Virus record (IMG/VR): IMGVR_UViG_3300033463_000077
Reading direction: 5' to 3' (one strand)
DNA from: a virus
Taxonomy: Duplodnaviria; Heunggongvirae; Uroviricota; Caudoviricetes
DNA: 64,000 bases
The notes beneath the pieces are model-generated. The model did no database searches. It was given only the letters and a program-made list of their open reading frames with translations, and was not told the origin of the DNA. The position numbers and the translations under genes were made by a program. The number at the start of each line of letters is the position of its first letter. Position 1 is the stretch's first letter. Of this stretch, positions 17,481-17,800 are shown in pieces.

Positions 17481-17487
17481 TAAAAAA

Positions 17488-17566
17488 TGGTCGCGGGAGG
17501 GGGAGTTGCACCCAAACCGACCTTCAGCTTATGAGGCTGACGAGCTACTTCTGCTACTATCCCGCA
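17488..17566 (-). tRNA. tRNA-Met-like (anticodon CAT), degenerate T-arm, preceded by ~200-nt transcribed leader
   Basis: manual fold: acceptor UGCGGGA/UCCCGCG (U1-G72), anticodon stem UCAGC/GCUGA, loop CUCAUAA, encoded CCA; T-stem has two U-C mismatches. Confidence 0.5.
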
Positions 17567-17765
17567 ACAAAAAAGTATTAGGTTTAGGAACCTGTTGAAG
17601 GGGAATCGAATATACTGAGGAACGATCAATTCCTTACCTTCTCACCTCTATAGAGGCTCACCTAATTATGGTCTTTCCCATCCCTCGCATCAGGACTAGA
17701 AACTCGTTCTTTTTCTTCCTTGAATACGAAGACCATTTCCAGTGCCGCGGTTCAATCCACTGGCT
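17567..17765 (-). ncRNA. untranslated structured leader between promoter 17766-17800 and the tRNA-Met-like gene
   Basis: no ORF; begins GCCAGUGG..CACUGG hairpin; own promoter upstream. Confidence 0.35.
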
Positions 17766-17800
17766 TATTTTAATATAACACCTTTCAGTGAAAGATAAAC
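17766..17800 (-). promoter_or_regulatory. promoter motif copy (variant) driving leader + tRNA-Met-like
   Basis: motif match. Confidence 0.5.

Follow-up and report, generated by a model that had tools for sequence, protein, structure and literature searches.

What does a phage gain from a locus with a promoter of its own, some 200 nucleotides (nt) devoid of a convincing open reading frame (ORF), and a tRNA gene which the usual programs pass over? The question is raised by positions 17,481 to 17,800 in a stretch of 64,000 nt of viral DNA (Caudoviricetes; IMG/VR record IMGVR_UViG_3300033463_000077), henceforth the window, i.e., the whole stretch that was analysed. The element under study is a tRNA gene with the anticodon CAU on the minus strand, together with the long leader that precedes it. 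Our best explanation, to which we assign a probability of about 0.68, is that the phage promoter drives a single precursor composed of a folded leader and an initiator-derived tRNA(CAU) with an alternative elbow, and that RNase P would separate this precursor into a Met tRNA and a stable leader RNA. A phage tRNA unit as such is of a known kind. New are an under-recognised variant of the tRNA elbow and a new structured leader RNA.

On the minus strand the order is promoter GTTTATCTTTCACTGAAAGGTGTTATATT (17800-17772), about 200 nt without a credible ORF, the tRNA gene, a run of six T, and the next promoter. A consensus scan resolves the first promoter into a -35-like GTTTAT(C) at 17800-17795 and an extended -10 element, TGTTATATT, at 17780-17772; the 5' end of the transcript is probably near 17766-17764. 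A first-pass annotation, made from the letters of the sequence alone, had already placed a promoter upstream of the leader. That this promoter is genuine is borne out by the family to which it belongs. The extended -10 core TGTTAYAWT occurs at 99 sites in the window, against about 8 in shuffled sequences, and 88 of the 99 point the same way as the genes around them (below 28000 along the minus strand, above it along the plus strand). The leader was likewise described as free of ORFs, and this agrees with the spacing: 338 nt lie between the -10 element at 17780 and a ribosome binding site with start codon, the maximum in a promoter family with a median of 21 nt. Most of the remaining long distances belong to tRNA units. 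The U-tract (17482-17487, minus strand; T6 here, T7-T11 in relatives) follows directly 3' of the CCA and is probably the end of the transcription unit; the next promoter found by the promoter scan (17479-17452, minus strand) begins immediately after it. The arrangement supports one non-coding transcription unit, consisting of a promoter, a long untranslated leader, and a CAU tRNA with its CCA.

The tRNA gene occupies 17488-17566 on the minus strand (UGCGGGAUAGUAGCAGAAGUAGCUCGUCAGCCUCAUAAGCUGAAGGUCGGUUUGGGUGCAACUCCCCCUCCCGCGACCA) and is identified by a family covariance model, by ARAGORN at an 80% threshold, and by its relatives. It had been predicted as a tRNA-like molecule of 79 nt with the anticodon loop CUCAUAA and an encoded CCA, and so it is found, with A73 ahead of the CCA. 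The acceptor, UGCGGGA...UCCCGCG-A-CCA, opens with U1-G72 and continues with G2C3G4G5. The D stem, GAGC/GCUC, contains a single bulged U and carries the loop AGAAGUA. The T stem, formerly read as having two U-C mismatches, actually consists of five standard pairs interrupted by a bulge of three U, GG(UUU)GGG/CCCCC, and closes the loop UGCAACU. The cloverleaf is intact (7-bp acceptor, 4-bp D stem, 5-bp anticodon and T stems with 7-nt loops), 21 of 21 pairs are standard, and in the alignment to the family model the one extra U of the D stem and the three extra U of the T stem are the only stem irregularities. The elbow is another matter. In place of the universal G18 G19 / U54 U55 C56 the D-loop AGAAGUA has a single G, and position 55 of the T-loop is a G. 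The first-pass annotation rightly called this T-loop non-canonical; its verdict of a degenerate T-arm does not stand, since neither the relatives nor a large phage family shows any variation in this T-loop. The D-loop without G18G19 is a second anomaly of the elbow, absent from that annotation.

Standard detection fails at this gene. Default ARAGORN calls no tRNA at 17488-17566, and Rfam at the gathering score has none at the locus, the sensitive scan reaching 18.8 bits (RF00005) against a cut-off of 29. Elsewhere in the window the two programs, at these settings, find seven or eight tRNAs. At the 80% threshold ARAGORN, the check that had been proposed, does call a tRNA-Met(CAT), at exactly 17488-17566.

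The unusual elbow is shared by a whole family of phage tRNAs. A probe covering the T-loop and the 3' end, GGTGCAACTCCN{4,5}CCGCNACCA, retrieved 101 stretches from IMG/VR, of which 98 are CAU cloverleaf tRNAs and three are coding repeats. The members have in common the CAU anticodon, an N1-G2C3G4G5 acceptor, A73 and an encoded CCA, and most of them are perfect cloverleaves. The T-loop and the acceptor end are required by the probe. The D-loop is not, and throughout the family it is a 7-nt loop without GG and with an invariant AG. A covariance model of the family and an alignment, A5, were built from 24 members. Members score 49-94 bits with this model and ordinary tRNAs 38-55 bits (38.5-45.1 bits within the window); the window tRNA scores 63.6 bits over its full length (E = 5e-13). 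Its D-loop is an exact fit to the family pattern A-R-N-A-G-N-A, and both loops match the invariant columns of A5. By these alignments the alternative elbow, i.e., the D-loop A-R-N-A-G-N-A and the T-loop U-G-C-A-A-C-U replacing the universal nucleotides, is a conserved hallmark of the family. By the same measure the window gene is a conserved member of a phage lineage and not a decaying copy.

This has consequences for annotation. When ARAGORN was run with default settings on the 78 unique sequences retrieved with the probe, 43 were called, all as Met(CAT), and 35 were missed; the window copy lies under the Rfam tRNA threshold. Since tRNAs of this family are often missed, inventories of phage tRNAs are incomplete, and so are the analyses of codon use and anti-defence functions built on them. 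None of the papers that came up in a literature search describes the variant.

Is the alternative elbow a general property of phage tRNAs? Among the non-CAU tRNAs in the IMG/VR loci, 344 of 382 unique sequences have GG in the D-loop, and their T-loops are mostly of the TTCGA and TTCAA types. T-loops of the G55 type are limited to the CAU tRNA, plus a few contigs. In these contigs (L081, which is IMGVR_UViG_3300047678_000846, L043 and L033) G55-type T-loops (UGCAAxx) occur in the majority of the tRNAs, across many isotypes. Therefore, the alternative elbow can spread over the whole tRNA set of a phage. Several phages carry the alternative-elbow CAU tRNA alongside one or two canonical CAU tRNAs.

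Cultured phages provide one example. Erwinia phage Cronus has the same elbow as the window gene, with the D-loop AGUAGUA and the T-loop UGCAACU; the gene is annotated as tRNA-Met-CAT, and the elbow is not remarked on. Cronus is the sole alternative elbow among six related tRNA-Met genes of cultured phages, the other five being canonical, and the four closest GenBank relatives of the window gene have canonical elbows. The tRNA-Met genes of the phages S-CRM01 (Synechococcus) and phiM12 (Sinorhizobium) belong to the same lineage, their 5' two-thirds being nearly identical to the window gene. Unlike the latter, these two as well as cr116_1, Nican01, V1VFA-S and Philippe possess canonical elbows. 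In Aeromonas phage phiAS5 (L120) and Roseophage DSS3P2 (L131) a clear CAU tRNA gene is present where the GenBank annotation has none.

A further likeness leads to plant viruses. The tRNA-like structure of turnip yellow mosaic virus (TYMV) has the T-arm CGGGUGCAACUCCCG and a CAG-containing D-loop without GG (PMC6265322). The 7-nt T-loop UGCAACU on a G-C-rich stem in this 3' structure (RF00233) is identical to that of the window tRNA, and the common elbow accounts for a weak Tymo_tRNA-like match (RF00233, 17.2 bits) at the locus in the sensitive Rfam scan. Beyond the elbow the likeness ends. The TYMV element is a valine-accepting, pseudoknotted 3' untranslated region of a plant RNA virus, whereas the window gene specifies a cloverleaf with a 7-bp acceptor and the anticodon CAU; the comparison, which is one of sequence, implies no homology. 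An elbow replacement common to phage tRNAs and a plant-virus tRNA-like structure suggests that there is a second workable design for the corner of a tRNA.

Relatives of the complete locus were gathered along several routes. Look-ups in a large assembly collection yielded the same phage at 100% identity (L001-L003). L004-L007, which are 86-89% identical to the window, were reached via the downstream 130-aa protein, L111 and L112 via the LPD11 protein, and L123-L127, a third and more diverged group, via a 44-aa protein. Wherever the record names show a source, it is a ruminant gut metagenome. Other searches came back empty: megablast of 16900-18500 gave no match among GenBank phages, in a distant BLAST search of 50,697 phage records only the tRNA part of the locus found matches, locus searches in IMG/VR anchored on two flanking proteins and a protein-anchored search with the 130-aa family in JGI metagenomes gave no relatives, and an exact look-up of the 30-aa downstream peptide gave no record. 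The promoter is kept in L004-L007, L111 and L123-L127, the tRNA of the window in L005/L007 and L111/L112. Invariant in the relatives are the T-loop GGUGCAACUCC, the 5' end UUGCGGGAU, the CAUA of the anticodon loop, and the CCGC-N-ACCA end.

The body of the tRNA behaves differently from its surroundings. L004-L007 have an identical leader and identical flanks and carry two very different tRNA bodies, here called type A and type B. Type A is present in the window, L005, L007 and L111, type B in L004, L006, L008 and L123-L125. Type B has the D arm AAGGGACAGAUCCCUU, the anticodon stem CUAGG/CCUGG with the loop UUCAUAC, and the T stem CCGG/CCGG. From one type to the other the D and anticodon arms change over their whole length; both types retain their pairing as well as the CAU(A) loop, the T-loop and the ACCA end. 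In the anticodon stem pairing is preserved between the alleles through changes on both sides. The CAU anticodon, the 7-nt loop, A73 and CCA are present in every allele and across the whole family. The allele swap in L004-L007 spans about tRNA position 9 to 67 and looks like a cassette exchange or gene conversion. The pattern suggests that selection favours a property dependent on the anticodon loop, the T-loop and the 3' end, and that the remaining parts of the molecule diversify.

With the relatives at hand one can ask whether the locus is no more than a pseudogene in decay, preceded by a meaningless spacer. The missing calls by default ARAGORN and Rfam would fit, as would the bulges in the D and T stems and the minimum free energy (MFE) of the isolated 79-mer, which is no better than that of shuffled sequence (z = 0.06). 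However, all stem pairs are standard, both loops fit the family consensus, the promoter is conserved and the anticodon stem covaries between alleles. The UUU bulge of the T stem is not a fresh lesion, because it is kept in the diverged L111 and L112 and reduced to one U in L005 and L007. Finally, a spacer would hardly show nine compensatory pairs with none broken, as the leader does. The comparative data largely refute decay, and we regard it as highly improbable.

Which tRNA with the anticodon CAU does the gene specify? In E. coli the closest match, at 73-74% identity, is the initiator cluster metZWV, a tandem of three tRNA-Met genes flanked by mltA and amiC; the retrieved gene sequence has C1xA72 and GGG/CCC. 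Identity to elongator Met is 59% and to Ile2 57%. With E. coli tRNA-fMet of the metZWV type the window tRNA further shares the acceptor pairs G2-C71, C3-G70, G4-C69 and G5-C68, the A11-U24 pair, the loop CUCAUAA, an AGGUC variable loop, A73, the templated CCA, and arguably a weak or mismatched 1-72. In bacterial initiators a mismatch or weak pair at 1-72, G2-C71, C3-G70 and A73 are the determinants of formylation. At 1-72 there is a U-G wobble in the window, U-U in L004-L007 and U-A in L111; in alignment A5 the position is mismatched in 18 of 24 members and G-C in none. Differences from tRNA-fMet are also clear. The G-C pairs 29-31/39-41 are lacking, AG replaces G18G19 in the D-loop, position 55 is G, and there are insertions of 1 nt in the D stem and 3 nt in the T stem; moreover the gene is encoded by a phage, behind a phage promoter and a structured leader of 200 nt. 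Among the identities offered by the first-pass annotation, an initiator or elongator tRNA-Met variant fits best, on account of the identity to initiators, the N1-G2C3G4G5 acceptor and A73. From these features we conclude that the gene is an initiator-derived tRNA-Met, which may serve the phage in initiation, the likelier use, or in elongation.

The same annotation had also considered tRNA-Ile2, in which C34 is converted to lysidine by TilS so that AUA is read. The CAU anticodon would permit this, and in an AT-rich phage genome AUA codons are expected to be frequent. Yet the acceptor has G4-C69 and G5-C68 instead of C4-G69 and C5-G68, for which a check had been suggested, and the tRNA is closer to the initiator than to Ile2. 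A tRNA-Ile(UAU), a reader of AUA, is already encoded in the window. C4-G69 and C5-G68 are the TilS determinants of E. coli; TilS rules vary between bacteria, so the criterion is not absolute. All in all, we give Ile2 next to no chance.

We now turn to the leader (17567-17766, minus strand; about 200 nt). Judged by covariation and by the lack of a conserved ORF, it is a genuine structured RNA. It begins with the hairpin P1 (17739-17763), as the first-pass annotation had noted, with six pairs, CCAGUG/CACUGG (17763-17758 / 17744-17739), and an invariant 13-nt loop, GAUUGAACCGCGG, that is identical in every complete copy. The closing pair G-C is replaced by A-U in L123-L125, a compensatory change which supports the stem. 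A composite hairpin follows at 17668-17736, with P2 (17736-17730/17674-17668), P3 (17729-17712/17702-17685) and a bulge on the 3' side, GGGAUGGGAA (17684-17675). Six of the nine compensatory pairs are located here, two in P2 and four in P3. The 3' domain (17577-17666) is closed by P4 (AUUAGGU/ACCUAAU) and contains P5 (17656-17645) and P6-P7 (17641-17597). Two compensatory pairs fall in P6; P4, P5 and P7 either do not vary or change from G-C to G-U only. Neither structure model pairs the stretch AACAGGUUCCUAA (17584-17596), which hardly varies among the haplotypes. A tertiary pairing of its GGUUC with GAACC of the P1 loop is conceivable; neither partner varies.

The model of seven helices was tested on an alignment, A7, of three haplotypes (columns: P1 6-11/25-30, P2 33-40/97-103, P3 41-58/68-85, P4 105-112/190-196, P5 116-120/124-128, P6 132-136/172-176, P7 140-146/165-171). 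It comprises 53 pairs; 99.7% of the cells are paired, and nine pairs, in P1, P2, P3 and P6, have changed on both sides. None of 500 shuffles was as good, and slid controls gave no compensatory pairs at about 40% pairing. RNAalifold, applied to the window versus the L004/L006 haplotypes only, predicts 63 pairs with four compensatory changes, five G-C/G-U changes and no broken pair; in a permutation test the probability that 18 random substitutions break no pair of this leader structure is 1.5e-5. A structure derived from the window alone, which avoids circularity, has 2 of 66 pairs broken (P = 0.004). MFE folding of the whole precursor mixes leader and tRNA domains.

Could the leader be a small protein gene instead? 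We rejected this possibility, as no frame is conserved, whether code 11 is applied or TGA is translated as Trp. A 24-aa ORF has 8 aa changes between the window and L004 and is reduced to 13 aa in L123 by a 1-nt insertion; there is no conserved leader ORF because indels shift every frame. The earlier proposal that the leader is an RNA rather than a small ORF is thus strengthened, the nine covarying pairs included. Another of its claims fared less well. It had pointed out that GCCAGUG at the start of the leader matches the acceptor strand of the tRNA-like gene at 38525. These are indeed the only two such sites in the window, yet the match is probably a coincidence because it is lost in relatives: L123-L125 read GCCAGUA, together with a U that compensates for the change. 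On this ground we discarded a functional link of P1 to that acceptor.

Searches for a known RNA in the leader gave nothing. Rfam 15 over 17300-18000, covering T-box, riboswitches, ribozymes, RNase P, 6S, tmRNA, phage pRNA, C4, ROOL/GOLLD and others, produced nothing credible at E <=10; the best leader matches were CRISPR-DR13 (17.4 bits, E = 7.5) and ceN114 (16 bits, E = 4). The sensitive Rfam scan of the whole window had nothing in the leader, and ARAGORN found no tmRNA. An exact leader probe, GCCAGTGGATTGAACCGCGGCACTGG, had 0 matches in IMG/VR, a second one, TTCAACAGGTTCCTAAACC, had chance matches only in JGI metagenomes and GTDB genomes, and an nhmmer profile of the leader run against about 1 Mb of fetched loci returned its own clade only. 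Further candidates were tried and discarded. For a hidden or split tRNA, ARAGORN made only implausible calls when introns were allowed and the thresholds lowered. The leader has no paralogue in the window, where the promoter part alone repeats. The hammerhead core CUGAUG...GAAA becomes CUGAGA in L004 and lies inside a covarying helix. An intrinsic terminator at the U-run of the leader was dismissed, as the run takes part in the pairing and in relatives is down to U4-U5.

Leader and tRNA do not always go together. In L111 and L112 the same promoter is followed by about 25 nt and then by the same type A tRNA, with no leader, whereas in L123 the order is 44-aa gene, promoter, leader, type B tRNA, LPD11 gene. 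Because promoter and tRNA occur in L111 and L112 without it, the leader is a separable add-on module, inserted or lost, riding on the tRNA promoter. Unlike in the window, no long leader is apparent at the loci of S-CRM01, phiAS5, cr116_1 and phiM12; in these four phages the tRNA gene is part of a tRNA cluster or has an annotated feature no more than about 130 nt away. A compact structured RNA that is present in some relatives and absent in others is a tractable object for asking what a phage gains from it.

This distribution bears on the idea that the leader acts in cis and controls transcription or maturation of the downstream tRNA, be it as a riboswitch, an attenuator, a tRNA-sensing leader or an anti-Rho antitermination signal. 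The leader, where it exists, is always between promoter and tRNA, and its 3' end is base-paired to within a few nt of the tRNA 5' end. Moreover, other non-coding units in the window start with a hairpin and GCUGAUUGAAAA, a motif resembling the boxA of rRNA operons, and the P1 loop contains GAUUGAAC. But the tRNA of L111 would be expressed without any leader, no Rfam riboswitch or T-box matches at E <=10, and no alternative between terminator and antiterminator is evident, considering that the U-run is paired and only U4-U5 in relatives. Furthermore, GATTGAA is common in the genome (38 copies versus about 8 expected), and 200 nt with seven helices far exceed the needs of an antitermination signal. 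A role in cis appears quite improbable to us.

For a leader released by processing there are precedents. In phage T4, species 1 and 2 (rnaC/rnaD) are stable RNAs encoded in the tRNA gene cluster; like the small RNAs that come from spacers in bacterial tRNA operons, they are cotranscribed with tRNAs and set free by tRNA-processing enzymes. Species 1 and 2 are the closest analogy for the leader, whose release would by this analogy take a similar course. The leader differs in that it has no sequence similarity to the T4 species, immediately precedes one single tRNA, and is missing from some close relatives.

The GCUGAUUGAAAA module mentioned above consists of a promoter, a short hairpin and (U)GCUGAUUGAAAA. 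It occurs on the plus strand at 34319, 35578, 36069, 55415, 58161 and 59299; its exact 12-mer has five copies against about 0.01 expected, plus one copy with one mismatch. Downstream of these modules are non-coding sequences or unusual tRNAs. The module resembles the boxA of rRNA operons preceded by a boxB-like hairpin and may serve antitermination in phage transcripts that are not translated. Directly after the module at 34319 lies an uncalled tRNA-like stretch, GGCCCCGTAACCGAATTGGCATAGGT... (34331-34420, plus strand). A second unit with a long leader was noticed at 58127-58507 (plus strand), right after the RNA ligase 1 gene. It has a promoter, about 295 nt without ORF and richer in GC (58136-58430; MFE z = -3.1), and a tRNA-Lys(UUU); its leader has no sequence similarity to that at 17567-17766.

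How might the transcription unit of the CAU tRNA operate? In the course of events we envisage, a single precursor RNA would carry the leader joined directly to the tRNA. RNase P would most likely cut between U17567 and U17566, with U at position -1. The mature tRNA would be charged with methionine through its CAU anticodon and A73, and the phage would be supplied with its own Met tRNA for translation, which may matter when the host tRNA is attacked. As our best guess, the released leader would accumulate as a stable small RNA, perhaps with a role of its own in trans.

Several points weigh against this explanation. RNase P cleavage, aminoacylation and leader stability are deduced from sequence. 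The covariation of the leader stems from three haplotype groups of a single phage clade; P4 and part of P2 compete with alternatives in RNAalifold, the rival of P4 being a local hairpin. Searches beyond the clade turned up no homologue of the leader and so give no clue to its function. With respect to the tRNA, bacterial initiators normally need three consecutive G-C pairs in the anticodon stem (29-41, 30-40, 31-39). These are absent here, the stem UCAGC/GCUGA having A29-U41, G30-C40 and C31-G39. In L005, L007 and L111 the near-universal U33 is replaced by C33, which is also found in the family members L013, L019 and L032. The type B acceptor has three non-standard pairs, and on this account a decoding role is not certain for all alleles.

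Some of these points would be easier to understand if the tRNA-like element did not decode at all and served either as a decoy or substitute target for a host tRNA nuclease, or as a signal for RNase P and 3'-end processing that defines and stabilises the leader. Precedents exist in the mascRNA at the end of MALAT1 and in the tRNA-like parts of the gammaherpesvirus TMERs. In favour of such an element speak the C33 of L005, L007 and L111 and the weak acceptor and hairpin-like D arm of type B, which is nevertheless conserved across diverged phages. Two very different alleles between otherwise identical flanks suggest diversifying selection. The gene content of the phage is in line with this. Pfam identifies a T4-type RNA ligase 1 (56874-58106) and an RNA ligase 2 (29777-30901, T4 Rnl2 C-terminal domain), both on the plus strand, as are a calcineurin-like phosphoesterase (36971-37870), a PolX-like polymerase (40842-41795) and an NAD-dependent DNA ligase (46101-47990). 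At least nine other tRNA or tRNA-like genes are in the window. The two RNA ligases and the phosphoesterase look like a tRNA repair kit, and RNA ligases 1 and 2 suggest a conflict with host defences that cut tRNAs. Evasion of anticodon nucleases has been proposed for phage tRNAs (PMC10264068). Given this set of genes for tRNA repair and replacement, a decoy or evasion role of the unusual alleles has to be taken as a serious rival.

On the other side, the tRNA stands alone behind the same promoter in L111 and L112, and so is not merely a processing signal for the leader. Retention of CAU, a 7-nt loop, A73 and CCA in all alleles and in the whole family is what decoding and charging require, and perfect cloverleaves prevail in the family. 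C33 is tolerated by some eukaryotic initiator tRNAs. We therefore consider a non-decoding element unlikely, though deserving attention, and adhere to a precursor that would be processed into a Met tRNA and a leader RNA.

A bolder view may be put forward. Two radically different alleles, both of which keep CAU in otherwise identical genomes, and the presence of RNA ligases 1 and 2 would fit an arms race. Where VapC-LT2 targets tRNA-fMet, phages are reported to have generally avoided encoding that tRNA (PMC10264068). The alternative elbow might mark an undescribed, widespread class of phage initiator-type tRNAs, perhaps evading recognition of the elbow or of initiators by the host (tRNA-cleaving toxins, defence nucleases), and the leader might represent a new class of trans-acting structured RNAs which use the tRNA as a maturation handle. 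This is a tentative proposal; we think it possible, with the odds against it.

Some features elsewhere in the window deserve mention. In 1-14000 and 22000-28000, which are higher in GC, the minus strand contains hardly any long ORF under code 11. Reading through TGA raises the number of ORFs of >=250 aa from 11 to 31, and a chain of long ORFs appears on the minus strand. The late genes are probably TGA-recoded, and the early region around the locus studied here is probably on the standard code. At 35597-35670 (plus strand) ARAGORN reports a 'tRNA-???' with an 8-nt anticodon loop, CUCAGACG, containing UCA; it has no Rfam match even at E = 0.5 and is a candidate suppressor for the apparent TGA recoding.

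The tRNA-like gene at 38525-38607 (plus strand) scores 45 bits in Rfam and is not called by ARAGORN. Acceptor, D arm and T arm are normal, and the anticodon arm is replaced by about 28 nt resembling two mini-hairpins, GCC-GAAAA-GGC and ACCA-GAGA-UGGU. Just after the tRNA-Lys, at 58521-58557 (plus strand), an uncalled element, GCGGGTG-N23-CACCCGC, forms a 7-bp acceptor-like stem around a segment resembling a D arm.

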